From: a virus
Virus record (IMG/VR): IMGVR_UViG_3300043609_000024
Reading direction: 5' to 3' (one strand)
DNA length: 40,848 nt
Both the position numbers and the translations under genes were made by a program. The notes beneath the pieces were generated by a model. It made no database searches. It saw only the letters and a program-made list of their open reading frames with translations, and was not told the DNA's origin. Of this stretch, positions 13,859-33,640 are shown in pieces; the first letter of the stretch is position 1, and each line of letters begins with the position of its first letter.

Positions 13859-13893
13859 CTTTGCACTGCCCCTCTCGGAAACCTAGGGTTTGA

Positions 13894-13923: not shown

Positions 13924-14310
13924 AACGGTTTAGTCTCGATTTGCAACAAGATACCAAAACGGGACTAGTCCGTTTCGGCCTCGGATTATCCGAAAAACAC
14001 CCGGTTCCATACGTATGATGCATACGACGGAACTTTTAGAAGGCCCTTTGCCGGGCTTTAGAAGAGCCCTGAGGGGCCTTACGATTGGGGGCTCCATATG
14101 CACCCCCTCTCAAATCAAACGCATGGGCGGTGAATTCACGTTCCGTTCTAAAATGCCGTTTTTAGGAATGTAACCCTAGATTTGGATCATAATCCTATAT
14201 CAGAACGGCCCTAAATAAATCGGGGCATGCGGGCCCTGAGGGGTTGACAGCGAGCCCCGGCCAATGAGAAGTCAGGGCTCTTGACCCTACCAACCCGAAA
14301 GGCCCTACCA

Positions 14311-15807
14311 ATGCTTTCCCTGAATACTCAAATCCCCTCGCATGCCCGTGGCACCATTCGCGCCCTTGTTAAGGCCCATACCTCTTGGCCCGCCTATCTC
14401 GTGGAAAAGGGCATCATCTCGGCAAAAGCCCTGAATTCAAACCTCTTGGAATTCGCCCTCAGGCATCCGGCCCTAACGGCCCAAATCGAAACCATCCTAG
14501 GCCAAAGCCCGCAGGGCTCGCAGGTGGATGCCCCCGAAACCCTCATGGATGATGAAACGATGGAAGATGCAGAACCGGCGGCAGCCTCGCAAAGCGTATC
14601 GGCCCCGCATGGCTATGAGCTTGACGGCGTTTTGGCCCCGGTGGAACAACTCATGAGCCCTCTTATGCGGCAGGAACTCGGCAAGGCCCTTGGGCCCGTG
14701 ATCGCGGCAGCCAATAAGGGGCCCGTGGAAATTGAACGCATTGTGGAAATTGAACGCATTGTGGAAGTGGCCCCGGGCGAAATGCCCAAGGCCCGCACGC
14801 TCCCCAAGGCCCGCAGGGACAAGCGGGTTACGGTTCGCACGCTCTTTCCGACACGCAAGCATGACGCTTATCTTGACGCGTCCGTGACGCTTTGGACCGG
14901 TGCGGCAGCCCCGGCCGTTGACCCTCATTACGTCGTGGACCGTAATCAGATGGCGACCATGCTAACCTCTTGGGAAAGAGGCGAAAACGTGTGGTTAGTC
15001 GGGCCGTCCGCGTCGGGTAAATCATCCATGCCGCGCTATGCTGCGGCAGTCACGGGACGGCCCTTTGTCTCAATCGAGATGATGAAGCAAACCGATACGG
15101 AAGCCCTTATTGGCGGAACGGGCTTGGTCAACGGTCAGACCATATGGGTGGATGGTTCGTTCACCCAAGCCCTGCGGCAACCCGGGACCGTGATCTTGAT
15201 CGATGAATTGACGCTGGCCCCTCCTAGCGTGCAGGCGATTATTCAGCATGCGGCCAGCGAGCATAGGTCCTTGACGCTCCCAACCGGTGAAGTGGTTCAC
15301 GCTGCGGACGGCGTGGTTTTCGTGGTCGCCGATAACACGGCCGGAAGCGGGGACGAAGGCGGGCTTTATGCCGGAACCAACGTTAGCAATGTGGCCTTGG
15401 TTACGCGTTTCGCTCGCATGATCCATATGGATTATTTGAGCCCGCAGCGTGAGGCGGAAGCCCTCGCGAACCACACGGGCTGCCCATTACCTGCAGCGCG
15501 GCATTTGGCCGATTGGGTGCAACAAGCAAGGCGCATTCCGACGCTCGCTGGCGTGGTTATCAGCATGCGCCAAATGATCGCCTTGGTTCGCATGATCCAA
15601 GATGGCTTTAGTTCGCAGGACGCCTTCAAGGCCACGCTCTCAAGCCGGATGCCGTCCGTGGAACGCGCGACAATCGACGGGCTGGCCGATCTGGCGTGGA
15701 ACGTGTCTTTTGAAGCCATGGTTCACGGCAAGGACGCAGCCCCGATTGTGACGCCGTCGAATTCGGCGGCAGCCCAAGCATTCGGCGACGCAACGAACCC
15801 TTACTAG
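14311..15807 (+). CDS. cobS: CobS-like / MoxR-class AAA+ ATPase
   Basis: Walker A is VGPSASGKS and Walker B is VILIDELT. The segment ADNTAGSGDEGGLYAGTNVSNVALVTRF matches the CobS signature NTxGxGDxxGxYxGT. The ATG at 14311 is preferred over the TTG at 14281 used by the ORF track. Confidence 0.8.
   Translation: MLSLNTQIPSHARGTIRALVKAHTSWPAYLVEKGIISAKALNSNLLEFALRHPALTAQIETILGQSPQGSQVDAPETLMDDETMEDAEPAAASQSVSAPHGYELDGVLAPVEQLMSPLMRQELGKALGPVIAAANKGPVEIERIVEIERIVEVAPGEMPKARTLPKARRDKRVTVRTLFPTRKHDAYLDASVTLWTGAAAPAVDPHYVVDRNQMATMLTSWERGENVWLVGPSASGKSSMPRYAAAVTGRPFVSIEMMKQTDTEALIGGTGLVNGQTIWVDGSFTQALRQPGTVILIDELTLAPPSVQAIIQHAASEHRSLTLPTGEVVHAADGVVFVVADNTAGSGDEGGLYAGTNVSNVALVTRFARMIHMDYLSPQREAEALANHTGCPLPAARHLADWVQQARRIPTLAGVVISMRQMIALVRMIQDGFSSQDAFKATLSSRMPSVERATIDGLADLAWNVSFEAMVHGKDAAPIVTPSNSAAAQAFGDATNPY
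14725..14766 (+). repeat. In-frame 18-bp tandem repeat (about 2.3 copies) inside the CobS-like gene
   Basis: GTGGAAATTGAACGCATT occurs twice in tandem, followed by GTGGAA. It encodes VEIERI-VEIERI-VE. Confidence 0.9.
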
Positions 15808-15837
15808 GGGTTTGACAAACAAACCCGAATAGGCGTA

Positions 15838-15866
15838 AAAAGGGGGCCCAAAAGGCCCCTTTTCTG
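15838..15866. terminator. Hairpin flanked by an A-tract and a T-tract between the CobS-like and CobT-like genes
   Basis: AAAAAGGGGGCC-CAAAA-GGCCCCTTTTCTGCTTT. The GC stem is 6 bp, extendable by A-T pairs. Confidence 0.45.
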
Positions 15867-15891
15867 CTTTCAACATAGGAAAACCCTAGCA

Positions 15892-17757
15892 ATGTCATAT
15901 ACTTATCCGGAAGCTCTGACCGCGCTGGAAAGCGTCGCAAACGATTTTATCAAGGTGCTTCGCCCCCGTGAAATCGCCCGCGTGCTTTTGGTTTGCGATA
16001 GCGCCGCGCAAACGGCGTCCGTGACTTGGGACGCCTATAACATCAAGGTGAACATGCCCGTACGCCCTGCGGCGTCCCGCATGACGCAAGCCGAATTCGA
16101 AAACTGGGTTTCCTATTTGCTTCACGAGTTAGGCCATCCCGCGCATACCGATATGGTGGCGTGGCAGGCGGCATGCCGCGACGGCGTGGCCCGCATGGTC
16201 AACGCGCTGGAAGATGTCCGAATGGAAAAAGCCCTTATCGTTTCAGGCATTGTGCCGAACGCTAAAAGCGTCCTTTCCCGCCTCTTGTCCCGCAAGATTG
16301 TGGAAGCCCGTTCCAATGGCTGGAAACCGAACGCTCGCCGCGAATTCGGGTGGACCATTTGCGTTCTAGGGCGTGCGGCCAATGGTTATGCTTTCGACGG
16401 TTCCGATTTGGCTTGGATCGACGCGCAAATCAAAGCAGGCGGGACGGTTCACGCCGTTTTGGCTTGGGCCTTGCCGGATTTGGCCGCGTGCAAATCGACG
16501 GCCGATTGTACAGCCCTTGCAAAGCGTATCATGGCAGCCCTTGCGGCCCCTCAGGTTGACGGCCCCGGTGGTTTCCCCGGCGAGCAGGGCGAGCAGGGCG
16601 AGCAGGGCGAGCAGGGCGAGAGCGAGCAGGGCGAGAGCGAGAGCGGGGCGCAGCCCCGCGAGGGCGAGGGCGAGGAAGGCCCGCAGGAAGGGCAGGGAGA
16701 GGGCGAGGGCGAGGAAGGCGAGGAAGGCGAGGGCGAGCAGGACGAACGCACGGACGGCCCTCCTAGCGAGACTGAAAGCCCCTCCGGTGAAACCGGAGGT
16801 TCTGAGGGCGAGGAAGGGGGCAAAGGCGGCAAGGGGCAGGGAGATGGAACCTTTGACGCTGATGAAAAGCCCGTGAAAAACGACAAGGACCTGACCGAAC
16901 GGGAACTAGCCCCCGACGATAGCGCCGACGAAAACCTCACGGGCGCGGAAGCGGTCAACGAACGCGTGGTCATCAACATCCTGCGTAGCGGGATTATCGG
17001 CATGAAGCCCAAGGATCAAGGCCATTCGCGCAACGGCCCCAATGCCGAACGCCTCAAGAGCGCGGCAGCCCGTGCTTCCAAACAGCGCGCCCTTTTGGCG
17101 CGGGCTTTGAGGGCTAACGATACCGACGAACGGGAAGGCGGAAAACGCACGGGACGCTTGAACCGTAGCGCGCTGGCCCGCGTCGCCGCAGGTTCGTCAA
17201 CAATCTTTGAACGCCGTGACGTTTGCGAGGGTTTTGATACTGACGTTCACGTCCTGCTAGATGCATCCGGCAGTATGGGCGACGCGGGCAAGATGTCCGC
17301 AGCCCTTGAGGTGGGCTTGATCGTGACGCAAGCGGCAGCCAGCGTCGGGGCGTCCTGCACAACGGAGGTTTTCAATTCCATAGGTTACATCCGGGCCGGG
17401 GCCCTTGCAGGCAAGCGCACGCCTAATCCGGCGGATTTTGGGGTCCTTGTGAACCAAGCGGACGGCGGCACGCCCTTGAGCCCCCATATGGCGCGGGCTG
17501 CCGTGGCCCAAGCGGCACGGGCCCCCGGCAAGCGTCGGGTTCTGTTTTTGGTGACGGACGGGGGCTGCGACTACGGCCAAGAAACCGTCAAGCGAATGGC
17601 GCGGCATCTTGAGAAAACCTGCGGAACCGTGATCGCTCACGTTTCGATTTTCACGGCCCTGCGGGGCTCGTTCAAGGCAGAGGTTCGCGTGGCCCCGGGA
17701 CAAGCCATTGCCGACGTCGGGCTTGACCATTTCGTCCGGGTCCTGCAGGCCCTTTGA
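15892..17757 (+). CDS. cobT: CobT-like VWA-domain protein with an N-terminal HExxH motif and an acidic G/E/Q linker (621 aa)
   Basis: The C-terminal MIDAS motif is DVHVLLDASGSMGD (DxSxS at 17260-17274). The acidic repeat linker spans about aa 230-310. HELGH lies at aa 78-82. The gene is paired with the CobS-like ATPase. Confidence 0.75.
   Translation: MSYTYPEALTALESVANDFIKVLRPREIARVLLVCDSAAQTASVTWDAYNIKVNMPVRPAASRMTQAEFENWVSYLLHELGHPAHTDMVAWQAACRDGVARMVNALEDVRMEKALIVSGIVPNAKSVLSRLLSRKIVEARSNGWKPNARREFGWTICVLGRAANGYAFDGSDLAWIDAQIKAGGTVHAVLAWALPDLAACKSTADCTALAKRIMAALAAPQVDGPGGFPGEQGEQGEQGEQGESEQGESESGAQPREGEGEEGPQEGQGEGEGEEGEEGEGEQDERTDGPPSETESPSGETGGSEGEEGGKGGKGQGDGTFDADEKPVKNDKDLTERELAPDDSADENLTGAEAVNERVVINILRSGIIGMKPKDQGHSRNGPNAERLKSAAARASKQRALLARALRANDTDEREGGKRTGRLNRSALARVAAGSSTIFERRDVCEGFDTDVHVLLDASGSMGDAGKMSAALEVGLIVTQAAASVGASCTTEVFNSIGYIRAGALAGKRTPNPADFGVLVNQADGGTPLSPHMARAAVAQAARAPGKRRVLFLVTDGGCDYGQETVKRMARHLEKTCGTVIAHVSIFTALRGSFKAEVRVAPGQAIADVGLDHFVRVLQAL
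16579..16821 (+). repeat. Coding low-complexity/tandem region (GGCGAGCAG units, GEQ/GE repeats)
   Basis: GEQGEQGEQGEQGESEQGESESG...EGEGEEGPQEGQGEGEGEEGEEGEGEQDE. The 9-bp unit GGCGAGCAG is repeated 4 times at the start. Confidence 0.9.
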
Positions 17758-17795
17758 ACCGGGACCACAGCCCCGAAAGCCTCGCAAAGCGTATC

Positions 17796-17830
17796 AAGCC
17801 CCGGCCCCGCAAGGTGCCGGGGCTTTTGCT
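17796..17830 (+). terminator. Rho-independent terminator after the CobT-like gene
   Basis: AAGCCCCGGC-N10-GCCGGGGCTT forms a 10-bp perfect stem, running into TTTTGCT. It begins 39 nt after the stop codon. Confidence 0.7.
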
Positions 17831-17953
17831 TGCCCTCCAGAAGCCCTTGGGAAGGCCCGTAGGGAGTTTATTTTGGGCCCCCGCTAGGGAGATGGCCCCC
17901 GGGGCCCTAAACGCACCCCCGGGCTTCCTAGGGCCTTGGAAGCCCTATCAATT

Positions 17954-17969
17954 GTAATGGTACCATTAC
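17954..17969. promoter_or_regulatory. Perfect 16-bp palindrome GTAATGGTACCATTAC (candidate dimeric protein-binding site)
   Basis: Read directly from the sequence. It is AT-rich in a GC-rich context and centred on GGTACC. Confidence 0.5.
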
Positions 17970-18005
17970 GTTTTGGGGCTCGCGACGCGGGCGTGCGCGT
18001 GACGG

Positions 18006-18145
18006 GCGCGGGCCCGCAGGCGCGCAGGCGCGCGGGCGCGCGGGCGCAGGCGCGCGGGCGCAGGCGCGCGGGCGCGCGGGCCCGCAGGCGCGCAGGCGCG
18101 CAGGCGCGCAGGCGCGCGGGCGCGCGGGCGCGCGGGCGCGCGGGC
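18006..18145. repeat. GC-rich tandem array of 18 units (16 octamers GCGC[G/A]GGC or CCGCAGGC, plus 2 hexamers GCAGGC)
   Basis: Hand parsing covers exactly 140 bp. The 8-bp period is incompatible with coding. It lies between convergent operons. Confidence 0.9.
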
Positions 18146-18165
18146 GCGCACGGGGGAAAATCCCT

Positions 18166-18209
18166 TTAAGGATCGACCGGGTTTTCTATTAAGGATCGAC
18201 CGGGTTTTC
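18166..18209. repeat. Perfect 21-bp direct repeat TTAAGGATCGACCGGGTTTTC, two copies at a 23-bp period
   Basis: Copy 2 (18189-18209) is the stop codon plus the last 6 codons of the HTH gene. Copy 1 (18166-18186) lies just downstream of that gene. Confidence 0.9.
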
Positions 18210-18467
18210 CATTACGAGGCCGCCCAGTTCTTCGAGCGGCGCAGTCGCCAGATAATACTCTTTGCGCAGGTGATCCGGCACCGGCCCGTCGAGCCCGTGC
18301 TTCTCGAAGAACGCCATCGAACGCTCACGCCGTCTCTTGGACAGCATCTTGCTGGTCACGGCCCTGACAAGCTGGCGCGAAACACCAAAGTGCCTTCCGA
18401 CCTCGGTGGCACTGAACAGTTTGCTTTCGTACATCTCGGCGACCATTCCGGCAGTCCTATGATCCAT
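18189..18467 (-). CDS. Small HTH DNA-binding protein (92 aa)
   Basis: ATG at 18467 is preceded by GGGGGAGG with a 6-nt spacer. The HTH-like segment is FSATEVGRHFGVSRQLVRAV, followed by the basic stretch KRRRER. Confidence 0.65.
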   Translation of the reverse strand: MDHRTAGMVAEMYESKLFSATEVGRHFGVSRQLVRAVTSKMLSKRRRERSMAFFEKHGLDGPVPDHLRKEYYLATAPLEELGGLVMENPVDP

Positions 18468-18512
18468 TGTAAACCTCCCCCTCGCGTCCACTCCAGCAGC
18501 AGCCCAAATCGG

Positions 18513-18631
18513 GAATGATGTACATGGTGTACACGAAAACCATTCCCGCCATAAGAATGATGTGGTCCTATAATGAGACTAGATTTTTCTTACGCGCGTA
18601 ATGGTTTTCATGTACACCATGTACATCATTC
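18513..18631. repeat. 32-bp inverted repeat (one mismatch) flanking a 55-nt AT-rich spacer
   Basis: GAATGATGTACATGGTGTACACGAAAACCATT (18513-18544) pairs with the reverse complement of 18600-18631. The only difference is 18534 C against 18610 A. Confidence 0.9.
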
Positions 18632-18635
18632 GCCA

Positions 18636-20909
18636 TCAGAATACCTTTTTGGGTTTGGTTTTCAACGCAACACCCTCGATGTACTTTCCATGCCTATCCC
18701 GATCCACCACATACCCGCCCTCTCGGAGTTTGGTCCCCAACTCCTGCGACGTGTGAGGGCCCGTCGCATGGCTCTTGTTGTCTTCCCGAAAAGCCTCCCA
18801 CGTCTTGAAAGCCTCACCAACGTAGACCCTGTCCTTCACCGCCACGCGGCCCCCAACGTCCATAATAAACTCCTTCCGCCACCGCCCAAAAACGTCGGCA
18901 TTGTCGAGATACTCCTCGGTTGCGTCATGGATCGCCCGGCATGCCGGAAGGCCCCCCGCCGCCCAGCCGACCCAGCCGTCCACCATCCACCGCAATATCT
19001 CAGCCTTCTCCCCTCGCAGCTTGTCCACTAGCCCCACATCGACCGCTTTGGGCCGAAACAGCGCGGGTACCAGCCGCATGCGACGTCGAACGCCATCATC
19101 GACCGTATCCAGACGAGGCTTCTCGTTGCCCGCCATGACGATCTTGAACTGCGGCACAAACGTCGTCGGGTCCTGCCGCATGCGGTTTGCCGTAATGGCC
19201 CCACCGCCCGACGCCTGCTTGACCAGCCCCATGTCCCAAGTCGCACCAACAGCCACGTCAGGAACCGTAACCAGACGAGCCCCCTCAAGCACCGCCAGAG
19301 GAGCCAGATGCTTGCCGCCCTTGCTGTCCATGAATACCCGGTGATCCGCCCGCTCATGATAGTCCCCCATCACCTCGCCGATCATGTCCAAAAACACGCT
19401 CTTGCCGTTGCCGCCGGGCCCATAGACAAAGACAACCACATGCTCGCTTGTATGGCCCGACAGGCAATAACCGCAGAACACCTGCCACCAGCGGCGAAGC
19501 TCCGGGTCCTTCTGCGTGAAGTCGTCCAAAAACTTCTCCCAGTATTTTCCCTTTGCGCCTGCCGGTGCGATCTTCGTGGAAGTGCTCCTCGTCACGAAGT
19601 CCTTCGGGGCCCCGGGCCTTCCCGTCACGCCCAGCCCCATCGCGTCCATCTCCAGAACAAAACCCGGCAGCCCCAGAAGATCACGGTTGGCGTCGAACGC
19701 GTCTCGTTCGAGACAGAGCGACGGCCGCAGCCGTACCAGCGAAGCCACAGCATGATGCCAGCCCGCCTTGAGCAGTTGCGCCGTCATCTTCGGGTCCGTC
19801 CCCAGCAGATGCCGACTGATGCTCTCCCGCACCGCCTCGTGAAGCGCCGCCTCGTTCGTCGAGATCACCCAGCGCAGCATCACGGGATCGAACATGGCCC
19901 ATGACCCCGCAGCCCCGTTGATCCACCCCAGACGTCCCCTCTCCGCCCGGGACACGTCGGCAGACATCGACCAGTGCGTGGGATGGGTGGGAAGAGCCCC
20001 AGCCACCGGCGCTGCCGGTGGAGGCGGCGGCGGCGGCGGATCATCGTCGAACACCAGAGATGCAAAACCCTGCGGGTTCGAGCCCTCGGCCCGGGCCCTG
20101 AGACGCCCACCCTTCGACCGCAGCCCGCCGGTCCCAAGGCTATCCCATACCCGCCGCGTCTCCTCGGCGTCGTAGCTCGCATGTCCCGCCGACCACTCGT
20201 CGAACACCACCAGCCCGTCGGCATCGTTCTCGCAAAGCGCCTTGAGCCCGTGGGCCACTTCGATCCACTCGCCCCTGTCGTCGAGATCGTTGGGTATAAG
20301 AGCCATCAGGGCCCGCAGCTTTTTGATATCCATGTCCCCGCCGCCGACGCTCCCTGCCGTGCTTGACCGCGCCACCTGCACCGGATCGACGGTCGCAGGG
20401 TCCATCGCGAGCCCCTGTATCGCCTCGGCCAGCCGCACCTTAAAACCGCCCCGGCCTTTCTTGGTGTTCACGCCCATCGGAAGCCGGAACAGATGCACCG
20501 CGTCGCGACCCTCCAGCTTGGTGCCCACGAGAAACTCCACCGAAGCGAAGAACCGCGCCCAGTCCGCCACCGGGACCGCAGGGTCCAGCCGGTAGACCCA
20601 TTGGTAGTTGCCTGCCGACGTTTCGACGACAGCCGTCGGGGCTCCGATGGCCCCCAGCACGGCGGGCCCTTTGACCTTCGTGCCGACGTCGTCGATCACT
20701 AGGGCTCGAACTTCCAAGGCTTTATCGGTGGTGCGCGAGAGGTGTCCTCGATCAAAAGCCGCCACGCTCCAGTAGCAATCGCGCGTGCCGTCCAGAGCAG
20801 TATAATCGCGCGTAGCTGCAGGCGGATGAAGGTTGGCGAAAATAGCGTGTTCCGCATGGTCAGGAAAAACCGCTTGGAGGAACCGCGAGGCCTCTGTATG
20901 GTTAGCCAT
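18636..20909 (-). CDS. Bifunctional primase-polymerase / D5-P4-type helicase (757 aa)
   Basis: The N-terminal prim-pol motifs are LVIDDVG and VVETSAGNYQWVYRL. A PriCT-like segment reads EWIEVAHGLKAL...FDEWS. A poly-Pro linker follows. The helicase Walker A is VYGPGGNGKS. AAGGA lies 8 nt before the ATG. Confidence 0.85.
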   Translation of the reverse strand: MANHTEASRFLQAVFPDHAEHAIFANLHPPAATRDYTALDGTRDCYWSVAAFDRGHLSRTTDKALEVRALVIDDVGTKVKGPAVLGAIGAPTAVVETSAGNYQWVYRLDPAVPVADWARFFASVEFLVGTKLEGRDAVHLFRLPMGVNTKKGRGGFKVRLAEAIQGLAMDPATVDPVQVARSSTAGSVGGGDMDIKKLRALMALIPNDLDDRGEWIEVAHGLKALCENDADGLVVFDEWSAGHASYDAEETRRVWDSLGTGGLRSKGGRLRARAEGSNPQGFASLVFDDDPPPPPPPPAAPVAGALPTHPTHWSMSADVSRAERGRLGWINGAAGSWAMFDPVMLRWVISTNEAALHEAVRESISRHLLGTDPKMTAQLLKAGWHHAVASLVRLRPSLCLERDAFDANRDLLGLPGFVLEMDAMGLGVTGRPGAPKDFVTRSTSTKIAPAGAKGKYWEKFLDDFTQKDPELRRWWQVFCGYCLSGHTSEHVVVFVYGPGGNGKSVFLDMIGEVMGDYHERADHRVFMDSKGGKHLAPLAVLEGARLVTVPDVAVGATWDMGLVKQASGGGAITANRMRQDPTTFVPQFKIVMAGNEKPRLDTVDDGVRRRMRLVPALFRPKAVDVGLVDKLRGEKAEILRWMVDGWVGWAAGGLPACRAIHDATEEYLDNADVFGRWRKEFIMDVGGRVAVKDRVYVGEAFKTWEAFREDNKSHATGPHTSQELGTKLREGGYVVDRDRHGKYIEGVALKTKPKKVF

Positions 20910-24306: not shown

Positions 24307-24773
24307 AGGCCCCCCGACACTGGAAGCCGCTGACCGAAATCGGTCCCGAGGATTTCGAGCCGATGAACCCCAAACTGATCACCGAGGTCATGGCTCACTA
24401 TGGCTATGACGAAGCTACGGCCCGGGCCTTTTTGCAGGATTATAATGATCGCTGCCGGTTCTACGCCAACGACATCTACCAGATCGCCGTCGAGGAGTAC
24501 CACCCCGGCTGCCTCCATTTGAACATCCGCCGCCGCGACGGCGGGATGGTCAAGGACTGGCGGCACTTCCAGCAGATCAAGAACGAGATCGCGGGTCCTG
24601 AGCGCGAGGCCGTGGAACTCTATCCGGCCGAAAGCCGCAAGGTGGACACCACCAACAAGTGGCACCTGTGGGTCCAGCCCGAAGGCGTGCAGGTCAACGT
24701 CGGCTGGTCGCAGCGCGACGTGAGCTATGACGAACACCGTGATGTCCCCGGAATGCGCCAGAGGCCCCTATGA
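24303..24773 (+). CDS. Conserved-looking phage protein of unknown function (156 aa)
   Basis: GTGA overlap with ruvC and ATGA overlap with the helicase gene. Core sequence: HLNIRRRDGGMVKDWRHFQQIKNEIAGPEREAVELYPAESRKVDTTNKWHLW. Confidence 0.65.
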   Translation: MKAPRHWKPLTEIGPEDFEPMNPKLITEVMAHYGYDEATARAFLQDYNDRCRFYANDIYQIAVEEYHPGCLHLNIRRRDGGMVKDWRHFQQIKNEIAGPEREAVELYPAESRKVDTTNKWHLWVQPEGVQVNVGWSQRDVSYDEHRDVPGMRQRPL

Positions 24774-26131
24774 GCAAGCCCCTCTTCCCCCACCAGCACA
24801 CCGGAGCCATGCGGATCGCGGAGAAAATCCCGACCTATCTTGGGCTCGACATGGGTATCGGCAAGACCCGCACGTTTATCGAAGCCGTCTTGATCCGCCG
24901 CGCCAAGCGCGTCCTGATACTCTGTCCCGCCAGCGCCAAGCTGGTCTGGAAACGCGAAATAGGTCTCTGGGCCCCGGGCTACACCTTCGTCATCGTCAAC
25001 TCGGCCGCCGACCTCAAGAAGCCCGCGCACTTCTTCATCGTGAGCCACGGCCTCATGTCCCAAGCCAACGGCGCGATCCCGGCGGCGCTGGCGCTGGGGG
25101 CCTCCTTTGACATGACCGCCATCGACGAGGCTCAGGCCTTCAACGCGCCTTCCAACAACCGGGTGAATGCCCTGCGGCGCGCGGCCCCGAGGCTGGGCGA
25201 CATCACCCCCCTCAGCGGCACCCCCATGAAGAACCACGCGGGAGAACTCTACACGCTGCTGTCGATCTGCTGGCCGAAGGGCATCAACATGCCCCGGCAC
25301 GAGTACGAGGAGAAGTTCTGCAAGGTGACGCACCGCTCGTTTGGCGGGGGCCCGATGGTCCGGATCATCGAGGGGTCCAAGAACCTCGACGTCCTCAAGA
25401 AACTGATCGCGCCGTTCATGATGCGTGTCCGCAAGGATGAGGTTTTCAAGGACTTGCCGCCGATCCTGTGGGACCAGATACCCGTGCCGTTGGACGCCGG
25501 GCACCTGTCCGTGATGGACCTCGAACGGCTGAACAGTGCCGTCACCCGGCAAAGCGCGACGGGCACGCCCGAAGAGGATTTGACCGATGCCCTGCGCCGG
25601 GTCGCTTCCGACGCTTCGCTGATGACGCTGCGCCGGATGCTGGGGCTCGCGAAGCTCAGGGGCGCAACCGACTACATCATCGACATGCTCGAAAATCTCC
25701 CCGAGGATCGCAAGGTGCTGGTGTTCGCGCACCACCTCGATGTGATTACCGCCCTGAAGAACCAGCTTGGGGAATACGCCCCTGCGGTCCTCACCGGCCA
25801 GTCTACCCCGCGAGAGCGCGAAGAAGCCGTCGATAAGTTCCTGAGCGATCCACGGTGCCGCGTGTTCGTCGGCAACATTCAGGCGGCCGGAACCGCGATC
25901 ACTCTCGTGGGGCCCAAATGCAAATGCTCCGATGTCGTGTTTGTGGAGAGTAGCTGGACCCCGATGGACAACGCGCAAGCCGCGTGTCGCGTGCACCGGA
26001 TCGGCCAGAAGGACGGAGTAGTGGCCCGCATGCTTTCCGCCAGCGGGACCATCGACGACCTCATCAACGGGCTTCTCGTCCGCAAGGCCCGGGACTTCAC
26101 CCAACTGTTCGACGAAGGAAAAACAGCGTGA
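24770..26131 (+). CDS. SNF2/DEAD-like helicase (453 aa)
   Basis: Motif I is LDMGIGKT, motif II is IDEAQAF, and motif VI is QAACRVHRIGQ. Confidence 0.85.
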   Translation: MSKPLFPHQHTGAMRIAEKIPTYLGLDMGIGKTRTFIEAVLIRRAKRVLILCPASAKLVWKREIGLWAPGYTFVIVNSAADLKKPAHFFIVSHGLMSQANGAIPAALALGASFDMTAIDEAQAFNAPSNNRVNALRRAAPRLGDITPLSGTPMKNHAGELYTLLSICWPKGINMPRHEYEEKFCKVTHRSFGGGPMVRIIEGSKNLDVLKKLIAPFMMRVRKDEVFKDLPPILWDQIPVPLDAGHLSVMDLERLNSAVTRQSATGTPEEDLTDALRRVASDASLMTLRRMLGLAKLRGATDYIIDMLENLPEDRKVLVFAHHLDVITALKNQLGEYAPAVLTGQSTPREREEAVDKFLSDPRCRVFVGNIQAAGTAITLVGPKCKCSDVVFVESSWTPMDNAQAACRVHRIGQKDGVVARMLSASGTIDDLINGLLVRKARDFTQLFDEGKTA

Positions 26132-26385
26132 AAGACCCTAGCATCCGAAATCCAAAGCACGTCACCATCAAGGTGACGGACAGCGAACTTCGCTGCTATT
26201 TCGTCCACTTCGACCGCGCCACCCGCGACGTGGTCGAGGTGGCAGAGTACAAGGTCGTCTATCGCCCGTGGATGAGCGCCATGCCCCGCAGCGTCAAGAA
26301 CGCCATCGACGCCGCCAAGACCAAGATCACCGAAACTATCCTCGCAACTGAAACCAAGGAGACGACCAGTGAAACTGAGCTTTGA
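26128..26385 (+). CDS. Hypothetical protein (85 aa)
   Basis: GTG start overlaps the helicase stop (GTGA). GAAGGA lies 8 nt upstream. Confidence 0.55.
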   Translation: MKDPSIRNPKHVTIKVTDSELRCYFVHFDRATRDVVEVAEYKVVYRPWMSAMPRSVKNAIDAAKTKITETILATETKETTSETEL

Positions 26386-26944
26386 AGGCCCGAACTTCCA
26401 CAGCATTCTTGTCCAAATTCGAGGGCTACTTGCTGCGGCAGATCACCCCGTGCCGCACGCAGCCCCCTCCGACGAGGCTCAGGGCCCGGGCCCTGACCCG
26501 TTCGACAGTGGCGAAACATTTATCTCACCACCGGGGGATAACCCTGTGGGCAAGCCTGTGGAGAAACCCCGCACCGAAAAGCAGAAGGCGAACGACGAGC
26601 GCCTGCGGCAAGCGGCGTTAGCCAAGGCTGCTGCCGCCAAGAAAGCCGCTCCGCCGCCGCCTGTGGATGAACCCGAGGAAGAGGATCAAGACGAGGCTCC
26701 GCCCCCGCCGCCCAAGGCCGTCAAGGCCCCCAAGGCGGCCAAGGCAGCACCCTCACCCGAGGAAATCGTGAAGCTGCGTCAAAGCACGATCTCGGACCTC
26801 CAGACCGCTTACGCCAACGGCAAGCAGGCGGAAGTGTTCGAGCTACTCTCTCGCTTCGGCAACGGCGCGAAGAGCTTCCGCGAGTTGCCGCCTGACGCCT
26901 TCGTGCCGATCCGCGACGCCATCGACAAAGGGGCCCTGACGTGA
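26369..26944 (+). CDS. Hypothetical protein with an A/K/P/E-rich central linker (191 aa)
   Basis: GTG start with AAGGAG 7 nt upstream. Low-complexity segment: AKAAAAKKAAPPPPVDEPEEEDQDEAPPPPPKAVKAPKAAKAAP. Confidence 0.6.
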   Translation: MKLSFEGPNFHSILVQIRGLLAAADHPVPHAAPSDEAQGPGPDPFDSGETFISPPGDNPVGKPVEKPRTEKQKANDERLRQAALAKAAAAKKAAPPPPVDEPEEEDQDEAPPPPPKAVKAPKAAKAAPSPEEIVKLRQSTISDLQTAYANGKQAEVFELLSRFGNGAKSFRELPPDAFVPIRDAIDKGALT

Positions 26945-27330
26945 AGCGTCTCTTCCTCCTGCTCGCACTGATCCCTGCCGCTTCGGCGGCAGGGGACCTT
27001 GCCCCGGAGCCCTCCGAACAGGCTAAGGTCGAGGCCCTGAAACTCGGCTACATGCTGAACGACAACTCGATGGCGCGGGACATCAGTCTTGGCTCTATCG
27101 ACGTATCCGGCGTATCCAGCCGCAACCTGACCCCGCCGCCGCCCGGCGTGATCAGAACCATTCCGATCACGCCCGGCAAGACCGAAAAGCCGGTGACGAT
27201 GCCGGAAGCGGCCGAGGCGAAGCCCGAGAAGAAAGTTCAGTCGGCGTCGGCGACGCCGGTCGCCGACATCTGCGCCCGTCATGGCAAGCGGCGCATTGTC
27301 CGGGGCTCGTCATGGCGGTGCAGCCGATGA
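26941..27330 (+). CDS. Secreted/periplasmic protein with signal peptide (129 aa)
   Basis: GTGA overlap start. The N-terminus MKRLFLLLALIPAASAAGD is a classic signal peptide with an A-x-A-like cleavage site. Confidence 0.6.
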   Translation: MKRLFLLLALIPAASAAGDLAPEPSEQAKVEALKLGYMLNDNSMARDISLGSIDVSGVSSRNLTPPPPGVIRTIPITPGKTEKPVTMPEAAEAKPEKKVQSASATPVADICARHGKRRIVRGSSWRCSR

Positions 27331-28064
27331 GCGCGCACGCCGCCTGCTCGCCTTCTTCGGCCGCGATGTGGATGGCGTGCCCCGCCAGCGTCACCAAGAC
27401 GAAGGGCATGACGCGCCCTTCGTCGAAGTTCGCGAAAGAAGGTACCGCCGCGCACACCGTCGCAGAGCTTACGCTCAACGGCGATATCTTCCTGCCCGAC
27501 AAGATCACCGTCGAGGGCGACGAGTTCATCGTGTCGCCCGGCATGGCCCGGGCCATCAATCCCTACGTCACCCACGTCCAGAGCCTCAGGGCCCGGTGGG
27601 GCGTCGAGGTCGTTCTTGAGAAGCGCCTCGTCGTGCCGAGGACCGACGGCATGGTCTGGGGCACGCTCGACTGCGGCGTCTACGACCGGCTGGCGGATGA
27701 GATCCACGTCGTGGACCTCAAGTTTGGCAAGGGCGTCACGGTGGGTCCCGATGGCCCGCAACTGAAATTCTATGCGCTGGCGTTCGCGCACCACGTCGAG
27801 GGCCCGACAGCAGGCACCAAGGTCACGCTGACCATCTGCCAGCCCCGCATCGAGGGCCCGCCGCTGCGCTCGCACGACACGACGCTGGGAGCCCTGCGGA
27901 AGTGGCGCGACACCGAGGTGCGGCCCGTCGTGGCCCGGATCAAGGGCGGCGACCCGACCGAGAACGCGGGCGCGCATTGCCGCTGGTGCGTCCGCAAGAC
28001 CGAGTGCGACGCCTTCAACGGCAAGCATCAAAAACATGCCGCCGCCGTGTTTGATGACGCTTGA
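27327..28064 (+). CDS. PD-(D/E)XK (Cas4/DUF2800-like) nuclease with Cys cluster
   Basis: MSAHAACSPSSAAMWMACPAS..., ...DCGVY...VVDLKFGKG..., and C-terminal HCRWCVRKTEC. ATGA overlap with the upstream gene. Confidence 0.75.
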   Translation: MSAHAACSPSSAAMWMACPASVTKTKGMTRPSSKFAKEGTAAHTVAELTLNGDIFLPDKITVEGDEFIVSPGMARAINPYVTHVQSLRARWGVEVVLEKRLVVPRTDGMVWGTLDCGVYDRLADEIHVVDLKFGKGVTVGPDGPQLKFYALAFAHHVEGPTAGTKVTLTICQPRIEGPPLRSHDTTLGALRKWRDTEVRPVVARIKGGDPTENAGAHCRWCVRKTECDAFNGKHQKHAAAVFDDA

Positions 28065-28090
28065 CAGAGGAGTTAGAAAAGACGTATTGT
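28061..28090 (+). promoter_or_regulatory. Sigma70-like promoter candidate upstream of the SSB gene
   Basis: TTGACA (28061-28066), an 18-nt spacer, then TATTGT (28085-28090). The architecture matches the terS promoter candidate. Confidence 0.4.
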
Positions 28091-28126
28091 ATCCCTGTTA
28101 CCAGATTTGAAAAAGGAACCAAACTC

Positions 28127-28669
28127 ATGACTGCCATCAATACCCCCTACGCCACGCTTTCGTTCGCGAACGTCTTCACCCCGAGACCTCGCGCAGAAGG
28201 CGGCGATCCCGTTTACTCCTGCTCGCTGATCTTCGATCCGGCACAGCAGAAGTCCCCCGCCTACAAGGCCATGCAGGACGCCTGCATCGCGGCGGCCCGC
28301 AAGGAGTGGGGCGACAACGTCCAACTCAAGACCATCAAGATGCCGTTCCGCGACGCGGGTGAGAAGGCCTATGACGGCTACCACGCCGGTCACACCTACA
28401 TTTCGCCGTGGTCGAAGAACAAGCCGGGCATTGTTGACACCAACCGGCAGGACATCCTGTTGCCGGAACAGGTCTGGTCGGGCCAGCTTGTGCGCGCCAA
28501 CGTGGTCCCGTTCGCGTGGACCCACACCGGCAGGAAGGGCGTTTCCTTCGGCCTCAACCACCTTCAGGTGATCCAGTCCGAGGGCCGCCAGCGGCTCGAC
28601 GGTCGCCCCGCAGCCTCGTCCGCCTTCGATGACGGCACAGTCGAGGAAAAAGAGGATATGCCCTTCTGA
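28127..28669 (+). CDS. DUF2815-type single-stranded DNA-binding protein (180 aa)
   Basis: AAGGAA lies 8 nt before the ATG at 28127. The acidic C-terminal tip is EEKEDMPF, like SSB tails (D-D-D-I-P-F). It is the usual partner of DUF2800 nucleases in phage replication modules. Confidence 0.7.
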   Translation: MTAINTPYATLSFANVFTPRPRAEGGDPVYSCSLIFDPAQQKSPAYKAMQDACIAAARKEWGDNVQLKTIKMPFRDAGEKAYDGYHAGHTYISPWSKNKPGIVDTNRQDILLPEQVWSGQLVRANVVPFAWTHTGRKGVSFGLNHLQVIQSEGRQRLDGRPAASSAFDDGTVEEKEDMPF

Positions 28670-29031
28670 TGTCGAACATTCCCGAAAGGCCCCACCCGGG
28701 TGAACTGCTCTCCCTCGCGTTCGAGGTTATCAACGCGAGGGGAAGCGACTACGACAACGTCAGCGATATCGAGCAAAACTTCAGGGAGGCTGCCGCCGTG
28801 GCGTCTGTTGTTATCGGAAAGCCCTTGACCCCGCGCGACGTCGCGATGGTCTTGGCCGTCGTCAAACTGATACGGTCCAAAAGCAGCCCGGAGAAGATCG
28901 ACAACTACGTTGACGGAATGAACTATCTGGCGTTCGCGGCTTGTTTCCAAGGGCTCGTGCCGATGCCGCCTCTCGGGGCCCGGGCCCCGGTCAAGCAGAC
29001 GGTGGTCCCGCTCAAGGAAGTCGCCGAATGA
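28669..29031 (+). CDS. DUF6378-like conserved phage protein (120 aa)
   Basis: The pattern RGSDYDN...F...A......G..LTPRDVAMVLAVVKLIRSK......D...DGMNYLAFAA matches my recollection of that family. TGATG coupling to the upstream gene. Confidence 0.6.
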   Translation: MSNIPERPHPGELLSLAFEVINARGSDYDNVSDIEQNFREAAAVASVVIGKPLTPRDVAMVLAVVKLIRSKSSPEKIDNYVDGMNYLAFAACFQGLVPMPPLGARAPVKQTVVPLKEVAE

Positions 29032-29402
29032 AAGCCCTCGTGATCGTCGCGGCCCTGCTGGTTTCAGCAGGGCCGTCTTTCGCTGAAGCCAAGCACACCG
29101 CTACGGCAGCGCAGTGGAAAGACATCCGCAAGCTCCAACAAGTATTCGGGCAGTGTGGCGGTCGGACTAACCCCGAAATGCTGGAGAAAGACTTGAACAT
29201 CAGGAAAGCCTGCGCCCTTTCCGGCAGGCTGCAAGACAAGTTGATCGCGCAAGGGTTCTGTTTTTACGGGCGTATCGATGCTGGCAAGCCCGGCAAGCTG
29301 TGGACCCAGAAACAATGGGAACAGGCGACCGAGGGCACTACCCCCGTGCCGAAAAACCATCGGAGTTGCGAGCCTCTGAGTAATCCGCCCCGATGGTTTT
29401 AA
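29028..29402 (+). CDS. Secreted Cys-containing protein with signal peptide (124 aa)
   Basis: ATGA overlap start with AAGGAAG 7 nt upstream. The N-terminus is MKALVIVAALLVSAGPSFAEA. The mature part has four Cys residues. Confidence 0.6.
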   Translation: MKALVIVAALLVSAGPSFAEAKHTATAAQWKDIRKLQQVFGQCGGRTNPEMLEKDLNIRKACALSGRLQDKLIAQGFCFYGRIDAGKPGKLWTQKQWEQATEGTTPVPKNHRSCEPLSNPPRWF

Positions 29403-31080: not shown

Positions 31081-31338
31081 CTAGGGCCCTCTTCGGTTGC
31101 CGGTGCAGCGCGCCATATCGAGGCTGTTGCGGGCGGTCTGCTTGCATTGCATCTCGGCGTTGATCGCGTCCACTTCGGCGCGGCGGTAAACGTCGGGGTC
31201 GTAGAGTTCGAGCCCCAGCCGTTGCTGGGCGCAGCCGCTCAGAAACACCACGATGATGATCATGACGGCGATCACTGCAATCGTCAGCACCGGACGTTGC
31301 CGGGCCCTGCGAAAGAAGCGGTCGCCAAGCTGGGTCAT
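31081..31338 (-). CDS. Small lipoprotein (85 aa precursor)
   Basis: The precursor has a basic n-region (RFFRRARQR), a hydrophobic core ([16 protein letters not shown]) and a lipobox (LSGC). ATGA overlap with the upstream fibre gene. Confidence 0.7.
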
Positions 31339-33236: not shown

Positions 33237-33640
33237 GTCAATGCCACCTGTTTCGTGACGCCGTTGATGCGAATAAACAGGCCAGCCTCCGTCATCCACA
33301 TCTCGCCATCGATTGGATCTACGGGAGTGGCGCGGGGAGCCATACGCAAGGCACCCGAGATGGTGAACGTGCCATCGTCGCCGAAAATGTGTGTCGCTAC
33401 GGTCGCGGCCGCATTGATCAGCGAAAGGCTTGGAGTTGCTCCGGGGTTCGTCCGCATGAACCGGGTGTAGCCCGCGATATTTTTCCAGAACACGCCGCCA
33501 TAGTCGCCCGACGATACCGACAGGTTACCCGTCATCTCGTCGCCGGTCGTATTGACGTAGCGGACGTCGGCATCGGCTTGGCTGATGCCGCCTCCGCCAC
33601 TGCCGCCCGCTGCACTGGGGGATAATTCGACATATGCCAT
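33233..33640 (-). CDS. Small tail-fibre-associated protein (135 aa)
   Basis: ORF within the fibre cluster. Gly-rich N-terminus and beta-rich body. Coupled to the downstream fibre gene. Confidence 0.55.

Follow-up and report, generated by a model that had tools for sequence, protein, structure and literature searches.

Tailed phages and archaeal viruses carry pairs of a MoxR-class AAA+ ATPase and a vWA-metallopeptidase, the viral 'cobST' class (PMC8651126; PMC7824862; PHROG 249 with PHROG 1576/5298). In the cellular system, cryo-EM structures of CobST place CobN at the MIDAS face and N-domain sheet edge of CobT, the client surface of this protein. CobT also has a disordered linker of ~90 aa and a shaft (Q373-R413). 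NorQ/NorD and CbbQ/CbbO share a common logic, in which an ATPase ring and a VWA-MIDAS adaptor act on a protein client. Liu et al. 2021 (PMC8651126) proposed that phage CobS/CobT-like proteins are a true cobaltochelatase motor that docks on host CobN, replaces or supplements host CobST and raises cobalamin synthesis during infection.

We identified one such pair, genes A and B (Table 1), in a 40,848-nt stretch of viral DNA (the window) that holds a complete phage genome of 40.7 kb with a 127-bp terminal overlap. The genes are two long plus-strand ORFs flanked by minus-strand genes, with the replication module on one side and the packaging module on the other. They are a member of the viral cobST/MoxR-vWA-metallopeptidase class, which is present in many phages. 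As in that class, an AAA_5 ATPase gene adjoins a gene for a VWA protein with an HExxH N-domain, an acidic linker and a MIDAS, near replication genes. Unlike the class, the ATPase has a ~170-aa family-specific N-terminal extension, and the cassette is inverted in this phage clade relative to its flanks. Both genes are also very divergent, with at most 36% identity to any deposited phage, and a tblastn search with gene B matched one phage record only. The closest deposited pairs, Microcystis phage Mae-Yong1326-1 ORF3/ORF4 and Roseobacter phage CRP-810 gp06/gp07, share the gene order found here (ATPase first), whereas the VWA gene comes first in T4-like phages and an E. coli plasmid. Each has an N-terminally extended 'CobS' protein (508 and 617 aa) and a 'CobT' protein (644 and 650 aa) that carries HExxH and MIDAS. 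Identity to gene A is 27-37% over the AAA core, and the N-extensions are not detectably homologous.

Table 1. Features of the gene A/gene B locus, with positions in the window.
Feature	Position	Strand	Evidence or remark
-35-like motif AGGGGTTGACA, possible promoter	14239-14251	+	Sequence; upstream of gene A; weak evidence
Gene A, CobS-like MoxR-class AAA+ ATPase	14311-15807	+	498 aa; ATG preceded by GAAAGG
Gene A N-terminal extension, ~170 aa	14311-14820	+	AlphaFold2 model; conserved across family
18-bp in-frame tandem repeat, (V)EIERI units	14725-14766	+	TRF: 2.3 copies, 100% identity
Walker A GPSASGKS, aa 231-238	15001-15024	+	G231, G236, K237 invariant, 39 sequences
Walker B D298-E299	15202-15207	+	Nearly invariant in family
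Sensor-1 Asn and CobS-type insert, ADNTAGSGDEGGLYAGT	15328-15378	+	D341, N342, G347, G351, Y353 invariant
Promoter-like TTGACA-N18-TAAAAA in A-B spacer	15812-15841	+	In silico
GC-rich hairpin and T-tract, terminator- or attenuator-like	15839-15871	+	dG -20.2 kcal/mol, z -2.8
Gene B, CobT-like adaptor, 621 aa	15892-17757	+	Profile matches, AlphaFold2 model
Gene B N-domain, zincin-like, aa 1-222	15892-16557	+	Model: helix, three-stranded sheet, eight helices
HELGH (H78-E79-x-x-H82), predicted zincin metal/catalytic motif	16123-16137	+	Invariant, 39/39 sequences
NALEDVRME (N104-E112), helix with candidate third metal ligand E107	16201-16227	+	Conservation
Acidic Gly/Glu-rich disordered linker, aa ~223-345	16558-16926	+	pLDDT <50 at residues 229-316
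Pre-VWA helices and 'shaft'-equivalent, aa ~346-446	16927-17229	+	Aligns to CobT ~345-413
VWA domain, complete MIDAS (D457xS459xS461, T527, D556)	17230-17754	+	Residues invariant or nearly so
Intrinsic terminator 3' of gene B	17796-17834	+	Hairpin 17796-17825, 13-nt arms, then U-tract

The original prediction described adjacent CobS-like AAA+ and CobT-like VWA genes, and family profiles searched against PDB sequences agree with it. The gene A profile ranks Brucella CobS (7.9e-43, 150 bits) ahead of NorQ (1.6e-33) and CbbQ (1e-28), and CobS is the best single-ring match among solved proteins. The gene B profile matches Brucella CobT (2e-39, 139 bits) ahead of NorD. The motifs named in that prediction (Walker A, the CobS signature, MIDAS DxSxS, here DASGS, and the acidic linker) are all found in the translations, and HMM searches place the ATPase among MoxR-class proteins (AAA_5, 6.7e-16; phrog_249, the phage 'CobS' family, 7.8e-48). 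An alternative TTG start at 14281 would give a 508-aa product; the ATG is more plausible.

From its sequence, gene A is predicted to encode a MoxR-class ATPase with intact catalytic motifs, a CobS-type insert and extra C-terminal helices. Its Walker B pair corresponds to D141-E142 of CobS (bioRxiv 10.64898/2026.07.21.739949), and the family has conserved arginines besides Walker A, Walker B and sensor 1. The insert follows the pattern GxGDxxGxYxGT, which favours the chelatase proposal; strongly CobS-like proteins share it (for example FATANTLGMGDDTGLYHGT in L043, TIGR01650 454 bits), and midasin has a six-residue gap at this site. Like cellular CobS, gene A has the H2 and pre-sensor-1 hairpins of its class and the additional C-terminal helices. 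The AlphaFold2 model (pLDDT 86.8) retrieves CbbQ and NorQ with Foldseek (TM 0.82-0.88). The matched NorQ and CbbQ chains have just ~270 aa, and their profile match stops short of the C-terminal segment to which CobS aligns.

Gene A is also much longer than cellular CobS (328 aa), and this extra domain counts against a chelatase motor. The N-terminal region had been estimated at ~230 aa; the extension is real, at ~170 aa, since homology to CobS begins at about residue 170-185. In the model, aa 10-64 form a four-helix domain and aa 104-135 a helical hairpin; aa 75-99 are a disordered acidic linker, and aa 140-155 a linker made of repeats. The extension is confined to this phage family, with no match in Pfam or PDB and only 34 matches among 1.84e9 representative proteins. 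The 18-bp tandem duplication was correctly recognised in the original prediction but is not 'fresh': homologues carry hexapeptide VE(I/V)ER(I/V) units at the equivalent place in variable copy number. The repeat encodes a flexible linker (pLDDT 40-47 in the model).

Gene B has the full CobT architecture. A zincin-like N-domain comes first, followed by an acidic disordered linker and a shaft, and last by a VWA domain whose MIDAS is complete. This domain order is a further point for the chelatase proposal. Gene B matches phrog_1576 (7.5e-24), and among its relatives CobT_C is matched in 15/22 and Pfam CobT in 4/22. In the AlphaFold2 model (pLDDT 84.4), the N-domain has the topology described for CobT_N, an M48C-like domain, and the alignment sets it against cellular CobT N-domains. 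The predicted VWA fold is confirmed by Foldseek matches to NorD, the MDN1 MIDAS and integrin I domains, and full-length fold matches are phage and haloarchaeal-virus CobT/VWFA proteins. Short tandem repeats occupy the linker DNA at 16579-16732. In the shaft region, R399, L402, R404, G421 and L423 are nearly invariant.

The original prediction did not mention the invariant HExxH zincin motif of the N-domain. N104, E107, D108, R110 and E112 are invariant in the gene B family as well. HExxH is present in six viral lineages. Proteins that combine it with MIDAS include the P-HM1 'peptidase' and those of Pelagibacter phage Mosig, of an E. coli phage-plasmid, of Mae-Yong1326-1 and of CRP-810. In a cellular sample limited to Brucella and close Rhizobiales relatives, SMALR replaces the motif in Brucella CobT and in ten Rhizobiales fragments matching Pfam CobT (PF06213), which keep the equivalents of E107, R110 and E112 as VEQARVE. 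HExxH is the main feature by which the viral proteins differ from the cellular CobT sampled here. In two prophage-like relatives within Rhizobiales genomes the motif reads HEVLGH (HExxxH), so strict zincin geometry is not universal. An intact protease-type metal site that is lost from the bacterial CobT examined points to a role other than B12 synthesis. At about even chances, we favour a phage-core AAA+ machine, an ATP-driven remodeller of a protein client and possibly a protease, expressed with the replication genes.

Several further observations make a chelatase motor unlikely. First, NCBIfam equivalog scores are far below cutoff for gene A (TIGR01650, 42.8 bits against 558) and gene B (TIGR01651, 10.4 against 759), indicating that neither product is a CobS or CobT equivalog. 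Second, the complete genome, whose longest ORF is an 812-aa portal, encodes no CobN, as originally predicted, and no recognisable B12-dependent enzyme. The pair is not a self-sufficient cobaltochelatase. Third, such pairs persist in hosts that supply no corrin substrate. CHUG roseobacters have been shown by experiment to be B12 auxotrophs, yet the pair is present in nearly all phages of the CRP-810 type. A Pelagibacter phage carries it, and 1091 plasmid records match (mostly Klebsiella, Escherichia, Acinetobacter and Enterobacter); those examined are ~110-kb Enterobacteriaceae plasmids resembling phage-plasmids. E. coli and SAR11 are not known to make corrins. In favour of the chelatase proposal, relatives sit in Rhizobiales genomes, and the phage probably infects Rhizobiales or other alphaproteobacteria, which do have CobN. 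Cobalt insertion is probably not the conserved function of the pair. The original prediction also took 'cobaviruses' to be named for a cobT-like gene; the name refers to a cobalamin-dependent RNR (PMC6775973).

By structure, the nearest neighbours of both proteins are the MoxR-VWA maturation systems NorQ/NorD and CbbQ/CbbO, whose profile similarity is lower than that of CobS/CobT. This likeness, the conserved metal-binding-type motif beside a MIDAS and the nearby replication genes would suit a chaperone of the NorQD, CbbQO or CoxDE kind that delivers the HExxH...E metal to a metalloenzyme of phage or host, such as one in DNA metabolism. We consider this improbable, to the same degree as the chelatase motor: no candidate client enzyme is conserved beside the pair across lineages, and HExxH followed further along by a Glu, with the catalytic Glu in place, is the classic mark of a catalytic zincin and not of a site for metal transfer.

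The order primase, pair, terminase is kept in relatives down to ~38% identity, so the pair is a long-standing conserved core cassette and, contrary to the earlier suggestion, was not recently acquired. Its GC3 (0.67-0.69) is low but lies within the values of the remaining genes (0.605-0.864). Viral pairs recur next to replisome genes in seven lineages, in the company of genes for replication and recombination (gp46, gp45, gp44, dnaE, DNA polymerase, primase). Adjacency to replication genes is also predicted by the idea that B12 serves dNTP synthesis.

The genomic setting bears on two other explanations. A MoxR-vWA role is known in tail development of Acidianus two-tailed virus (ATV), the ATV VWFA protein is among the weaker fold matches, and in the window the pair also adjoins the terminase module. 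A virion role has been proposed for the same architecture in jumbo phages (Iyer et al. 2021, PMC7824862). We find it doubtful, more so than metal insertion, that the pair folds, assembles or processes structural proteins here, as a chaperone or maturation protease: across lineages such pairs do not travel with head or tail genes, and in the window the pair is oriented opposite to transcription of the structural arm. MoxR-vWA modules also occur in conflict systems (PMC7159879), and a counter-defence or conflict role of the vWA-MoxR (VMAP ternary) type had been raised for this locus. Such a role is very unlikely. PADLOC gives no match, there is no third (VMAP or effector) gene, and the pair is a stable core element rather than part of a variable accessory island.

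The original prediction treated the pair as its own transcription unit. This is too simple, because the spacer between the genes holds a promoter-like element and a terminator-like hairpin, both conserved, and a single A/B unit is thus not established. TTGAC(A/T)-N18-TA(A/T)AAA is also found in L010 and L011. The -35 TTGAC motif is present in these and in L005, where the -10 is ACAAAT, and L012, where no -10 was identified in the spacer and the hairpin comes directly after. The spacer hairpin (0/200 shuffles fold as well) and its T-tract recur in L005, L010, L011 and L012 with differing stem sequences. No good -10 was found downstream of the -35-like motif before gene A; AGGGKTTGAC recurs at 13885, 14239, 15807 and 23062, with 7 occurrences overall against 3.9 expected, not above chance. 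The clean terminator predicted after gene B holds up (dG -28 kcal/mol, z -4.2, 0/200 shuffles). A hairpin with T-tract follows gene B in the window, L010, L011, L012 and L003, and L005 and L013 have a strong hairpin without a clear T-tract. Of the flanks described as repeat-rich, the downstream spacer is; in the upstream one there is a single 12-nt inverted repeat.

By analogy with CobST as seen by cryo-EM, a gene A hexamer would bind one or two copies of gene B. The gene B shaft would enter the ring's pore, the gene B N-domain would dock onto the ATPase small subdomain, and ATP turnover would move the gene B product. The promoter-like site and hairpin between the genes probably allow unequal amounts of A and B. 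The best solved profile matches are CobS and CobT themselves, which counts against the proposed remodeller; given these matches and the conserved shaft and linker, the pair may dock to host CobN. In the favoured reading as a remodelling machine, the gene B surface equivalent to the CobN-binding site would instead hold a different protein client. This host or phage protein would be remodelled, and possibly cleaved or metallated since the zincin site is intact, by a pair co-expressed with the replication genes of the phage.

We identified exactly two plus-strand genes between the terminase and primase arms of the window: gene A, encoding a CobS-like AAA+ ATPase, and gene B, encoding a CobT-like VWA protein. 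A spacer of 84 nt separates the two genes, which share a strand. These results confirm the originally predicted two-gene plus-strand pair, and every motif quoted for it is present in the sequence. The first and last 127 bases of the window are identical; the window is therefore a complete phage genome of 40,721 bp, circular or circularly permuted. The minus strand encodes a large terminase, portal, amidase and collagen-like tail fibers, as well as the primase-helicase and family A DNA polymerase. Because there is a second plus-strand arm, the genome has four alternating transcription blocks. No close phage has been deposited: the portal is less than 30% identical to any deposited phage record, with distant matches to Brucella, Rhizobium and Ruegeria phages, and a megablast search of window positions 14000-18000 against phages returned no match.

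Features of the window and of the gene A protein
Feature	Position	Strand	Description
Terminal overlap	1-127 and 40722-40848		exact, 127 bp
Gene A	14281/14311-15807	+	two alternative starts
18-bp repeat	14725-14766		exact
Gene B	15892-17757	+	ORF
Terminator hairpin after gene B	17796-17825	+	dG -28 kcal/mol, z -4.2, no shuffle as stable
Tandem repeat in gap after gene B	18006-18150		8-bp unit GCGCAGGC x 18.6
Direct repeat in gap after gene B	18166-18214		23-bp unit TTAAGGATCGACCGGGTTTTC(C/T)A x 2.1 copies
Small ORF	18189-18491	-	3' end overlapped by second copy of 23-bp repeat
Imperfect inverted repeat	18508-18636		60 nt, 80% complementary, 9-nt spacer
Primase-helicase and family A DNA polymerase	18.6-23 kb	-	
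Second plus-strand arm	24770-29402	+	SNF2-type helicase, exonuclease, Gp2.5-like ssDNA-binding/annealing protein, more small ORFs
Two large tail-fiber-like proteins	31335-33299 and 33656-35230	-	collagen-type Gly-X-Y repeats
Four-helix module of gene A	residues 10-64		model, confident
Acidic disordered stretch of gene A	N-extension, between four-helix module and hairpin		model
Helical hairpin of gene A	residues 104-135		model
Linker of gene A	N-extension		model, low confidence; holds VEIERI repeats

The gene A protein matches Pfam AAA_5 (6.7e-16) and belongs to PHROG 249, the phage 'CobS / porphyrin biosynthesis' family (7.8e-48, 165 bits). It is not a CobS equivalog, scoring 42.8 bits on the NCBIfam CobS model (TIGR01650), below the curated equivalog cutoff of 558.55 bits. 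Six CobS-like proteins recovered from genomes (L037, L043, L044, L017, L029 and L036) reach 454, 409, 381, 168, 136 and 124 bits on this model, the 454 bits being those of L043. All six are under the cutoff of 558, and one (L037, 5896-6828) comes from a Rickettsiales MAG. The scores form a continuum, with no sharp boundary between 'CobS' and 'CobS-like'. Compared with PDB sequences, a profile of 39 gene A homologs matched Brucella CobS (7.9e-43, 150 bits) over nearly its whole length (residues 14-315), NorQ (1.6e-33, 120 bits) and CbbQ (1e-28). Midasin reached 87 bits with its best single domain, and its total score is higher only because its six AAA domains sum.

Gene A has a MoxR-class AAA+ core, including an arginine finger and sensor 2. 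Across the 39 homologs there is little or no variation in Walker A and B, in the sensor-1 Asn or in the conserved arginines (conserved residues G231, G236, K237, D298, E299, N342, R366, R407 and R420), and the AlphaFold2 model (pLDDT 86.8) places the H2 and pre-sensor-1 hairpins at residues 268-281 and 320-330. This model resembles CbbQ and NorQ (TM 0.82-0.88, Foldseek, in a fold library without CobS structures). The 'CobS signature' noted originally is real: xxNTxGxGD(E/D)xGxYxGT is common to gene A and strongly CobS-like proteins from genomes, whereas midasin has a gap at this position.

CobS is about 330 aa long without an extra N-terminal domain, whereas gene A has 498 aa. CobS residue 14 aligns at profile position 184, and the first ~170 residues of gene A are not CobS-like. 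AlphaFold2 models this N-extension as separate helical modules. It has no match in Pfam or the PDB, and a search of 1.84e9 representative proteins found only 34 relatives, mostly fragments or members of gene A's own family, the only family recovered. The 18-bp repeat in this region is exact; since homologs differ in the number of hexapeptide units at this site, it is a copy-number-variable linker and not a one-off event.

A direct Pfam scan of the 621-aa gene B protein gave no hit at E 0.01, and gene B was therefore placed through its relatives and profiles. It matches PHROG 1576 (7.5e-24) and the 'cobalamin biosynthesis' PHROG 5298 (8e-7). We found 40 relatives, many on 40-44 kb contigs; scanned one by one, 15 of 22 hit CobT_C and 4 of 22 hit Pfam CobT. 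The link of gene B to these Pfam families is thus transitive, running through relatives. Gene B is not a CobT equivalog (10.4 bits on TIGR01651, cutoff 759). Its family profile matches Brucella CobT at 2e-39, spanning the linker, pre-VWA helices, shaft region and VWA domain, versus only 2.8e-5 for NorD. The profile of the N-domain alone had no meaningful hit among PDB sequences.

Gene B shares the CobT architecture of an M48C-like N-domain, a disordered linker of ~90 aa, a shaft and a VWA domain with a MIDAS. From N- to C-terminus, its AlphaFold2 model (pLDDT 84.4) contains a helix, a three-stranded sheet, eight helices, acidic disorder at residues 229-316 and the VWA domain. The modeled N-domain has exactly the topology published for CobT_N, a domain likened to an M48C peptidase domain in the CobSTN cryo-EM study, and the shaft region aligns with that of CobT. 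Foldseek confirmed the VWA/MIDAS fold through hits to NorD, MDN1 and integrin I domains; its PDB library predates the CobS and CobT entries, and fold hits for the pair are thus to NorQD, CbbQ and MDN1. The MIDAS is complete, with D457, S459 and S461 invariant and T527 and D556 invariant or nearly so.

One feature of the gene B N-domain, missed in the original description, sets it apart from the cellular CobT examined. Residues H78-E79-x-x-H82 (HELGH in the window), N104, E107, D108, R110 and E112 are invariant in 39 of 39 homologs, and such an HExxH, followed by a helix that bears a Glu, is a classic zincin signature. For cellular CobT, we aligned Brucella CobT residues 25-107 and ten Rhizobiales fragments matching Pfam CobT (PF06213), several of them labeled cobaltochelatase CobT by their source. 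A search with the Brucella N-terminal fragment gave only short Rhizobiales fragments, so that the motif column is readable in a sample that is not broad. With MAFFT, the cellular 'RGLGD-SMALR-xACHD ... DAVEQARVE' aligns with the viral 'RGYVD-HEAGH-xRHxD ... NALEDVRxE'; this alignment shows no variation at E107 and E112 and hardly any at R110. Within this sample, the cellular proteins have S-M-A-L-R in place of His-Glu-x-x-His: Ser/Ala, Met and Arg stand where the viral proteins have the two histidines and the catalytic Glu. Because of these replacements, the cellular CobT N-domain is an inactivated zincin, at least in the Brucella/Rhizobiales lineage, whereas the phage protein retains the site.

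An N-terminal HExxH domain is likewise present in six other viral lineages. HExxH combined with MIDAS is found in the 'peptidase' adjoining cobS in the Prochlorococcus phage P-HM1, its counterpart in Pelagibacter phage Mosig, the CobT-like proteins of Mae-Yong1326-1 and CRP-810, and the 'CobT' of an E. coli 110-kb plasmid. Several CobS-like loci in bacterial genomes carry both motifs as well. As a caveat, two prophage-like Rhizobiales relatives (L014 and L015) have HEVLGH (HExxxH), with one more residue before the second His.

The window pair is a divergent member of a known, widely distributed viral gene pair rather than a new system. Like other viral cobST or MoxR-vWA-metallopeptidase pairs, it sits in a viral genome and joins an AAA_5 ATPase gene to a neighboring VWA gene, with PHROG 249 membership and an N-terminal HExxH metallopeptidase-like domain on the VWA protein. 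We consider it very improbable that the pair instead belongs to a vWA-MoxR ternary conflict system (VMAP): there is no third VMAP or effector gene on the plus-strand arm, and PADLOC defense-system models gave no hit in the window.

The pair occupies the same position in close and distant relatives. In four close relatives (L005, L010, L011 and L012; 55-73% identity), it is inverted between minus-strand terminase and primase/polymerase arms, as in the window. Two distant relatives (L003 and L013; ~38-43% identity) have the order polA, primase, A and B. In L003, B is followed by a small gene, the terminase and a large ORF of portal size, with the whole series on one strand. The DNA polymerase and primase of these relatives run in the same direction as the pair (L003 4190-7923, L013 3353-6626), and so does the L003 terminase. 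The shared position indicates that the cassette is an old core component that was inverted in place in the window clade. The core of the original interpretation stands, and several side claims fall, among them the acquisition argument. Recent horizontal acquisition is rejected: GC3 of genes A and B (0.67-0.69) is within the range of other genes (0.605-0.864), their RSCU distances are high without being outliers, and synteny is kept down to 38% identity.

Searching bacterial genomes, we found the same primase/pair arrangement in a 288-kb Rhizobiales contig (L015, 5998-9333) and in Brucella anthropi OA9225 (L014, 985-4317), both prophage-like. This arrangement suggests alphaproteobacterial hosts for the window phage, and these relatives point to hosts that have CobN. 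L015 also carries polA and a GH108 lysozyme.

The spacer between genes A and B contains TTGACA-N18-TAAAAA, followed directly by a GC hairpin (dG -20.2 kcal/mol, z -2.8) and a T-tract. A -35-like TTGAC and a hairpin with a T-tract recur in the four close relatives; the stem sequences differ, pointing to conservation of structure rather than of sequence. The full two-hexamer promoter-like element is present in L010 and L011 and is weaker in L005. L010 has an extra 62-aa ORF (2737-2925) between the ATPase and VWA genes, upstream of the promoter-like site and hairpin. If the promoter is real, its transcripts would begin inside the 5' arm of the hairpin and therefore escape termination, and transcripts arriving from gene A would end there. 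This arrangement would permit unequal amounts of motor and adaptor, and such amounts would fit the CobS:CobT stoichiometry of 6:1-2 seen in CobST structures (bioRxiv 10.64898/2026.07.21.739949).

The terminator called after gene B proved strong, and a hairpin with a T-tract follows gene B in the window, L010, L011, L012 and L003; L005 and L013 have strong hairpins with no clear T-tract. A consensus scan for a sigma-70 promoter upstream of gene A was empty on the plus strand. The sequence AGGG(G/T)TTGAC occurs on this strand at 13885, 14239, 15807 and 23062; three copies are in spacers flanking genes A and B, and the fourth sits just past the polA start. This motif may serve as the -35 element of a phage promoter, although it is not enriched overall (7 found vs 3.9 expected by chance). 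A 430-nt non-coding gap of GC 0.73 follows gene B, and the repeats at 18006-18214 may be iterons or mark an origin or packaging signal. The inverted repeat, a candidate operator or origin, sits in an AT-rich spacer (GC 0.44) between a small minus-strand gene and the primase.

Across unrelated lineages, the pair adjoins replisome genes. Its neighbors are dnaE on the E. coli 110-kb plasmid; gp46 on one side and gp45/gp44 on the other in P-HM1; the sliding clamp and clamp loader in Mosig; an endonuclease subunit, sliding clamp and clamp loader in Ochrobactrum phage OC; a RecA-family ATPase in Mae-Yong1326-1; and DNA polymerase and primase/helicase in a Cobavirinae podophage. The name 'cobavirus', which the original prediction traced to cobT, refers to a cobalamin-dependent RNR (PMC6775973). 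According to a published proposal (PMC7824862), the pair serves virion assembly as a MoxR-vWA chaperone that includes a metallopeptidase domain. We give this reading little credence for the window pair, since the recurring neighbors are replisome genes.

It has also been proposed that viral CobST hijacks host CobN to increase B12 (PMC8651126). This is unlikely here, and we retain it because CobS and CobT are still the nearest characterized relatives and the likely hosts possess CobN. Several observations argue against chelation as the conserved function. First, equivalog status is reached by neither protein, gene B conserves the zincin site and the ATPase carries an extra N-domain. Second, the complete genome encodes no CobN, and no B12-dependent enzyme was found in it. 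Third, almost all CRP-810-type phages carry a homologous pair, and their CHUG hosts have been shown by experiment to be B12 auxotrophs, with no de novo synthesis. Finally, homologous pairs are present in a Pelagibacter phage and in 1091 plasmid records, those examined being ~110-kb replicons of Enterobacteriaceae; neither E. coli nor SAR11 is known to synthesize the corrin ring.

The best-supported mechanism is that of a CobST-like motor and adaptor; the pair conserves each of its elements, namely ring, shaft, N-domain clamp and MIDAS. CobN binds CobT at the MIDAS face and the N-domain sheet edge (bioRxiv 10.64898/2026.07.21.739949), and at the equivalent client site the phage protein still has a functional-looking peptidase cleft. 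On this basis, we see an even chance that the pair remodels a protein client, possibly cleaving or metallating it, during the DNA-metabolism phase of infection. A further reading, doubtful as a whole yet a real possibility, is that viral CobS/CobT-like pairs are a distinct type of AAA+ protease. The HExxH zincin peptidase would be on the VWA/MIDAS adaptor, not beneath the ring. A protein of the host or phage that is tied to DNA replication would be caught by the MIDAS, and the CobS-like motor would present it for cleavage via the shaft. Cellular CobT would be an inactivated pseudo-peptidase relative whose old substrate cleft now holds CobN.

Lists of B12-related auxiliary metabolic genes in marine phages routinely include cobS-type genes. 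The viral CobT-like proteins checked, from seven lineages, keep a zincin HExxH that is missing from the cellular CobT examined; the pair is a stable core cassette traveling with replisome genes in unrelated phage lineages; and it is kept by phages of corrin-less hosts. Together, these three points undercut a label in wide use in viromics, 'B12 auxiliary metabolic gene', and direct attention to a testable remodeler or protease function. Recent CobSTN structures ease the design of structure-guided mutants, and the E. coli plasmid relatives are genetically tractable. The value of the window pair lies in sharpening the question of what this known viral gene pair does.
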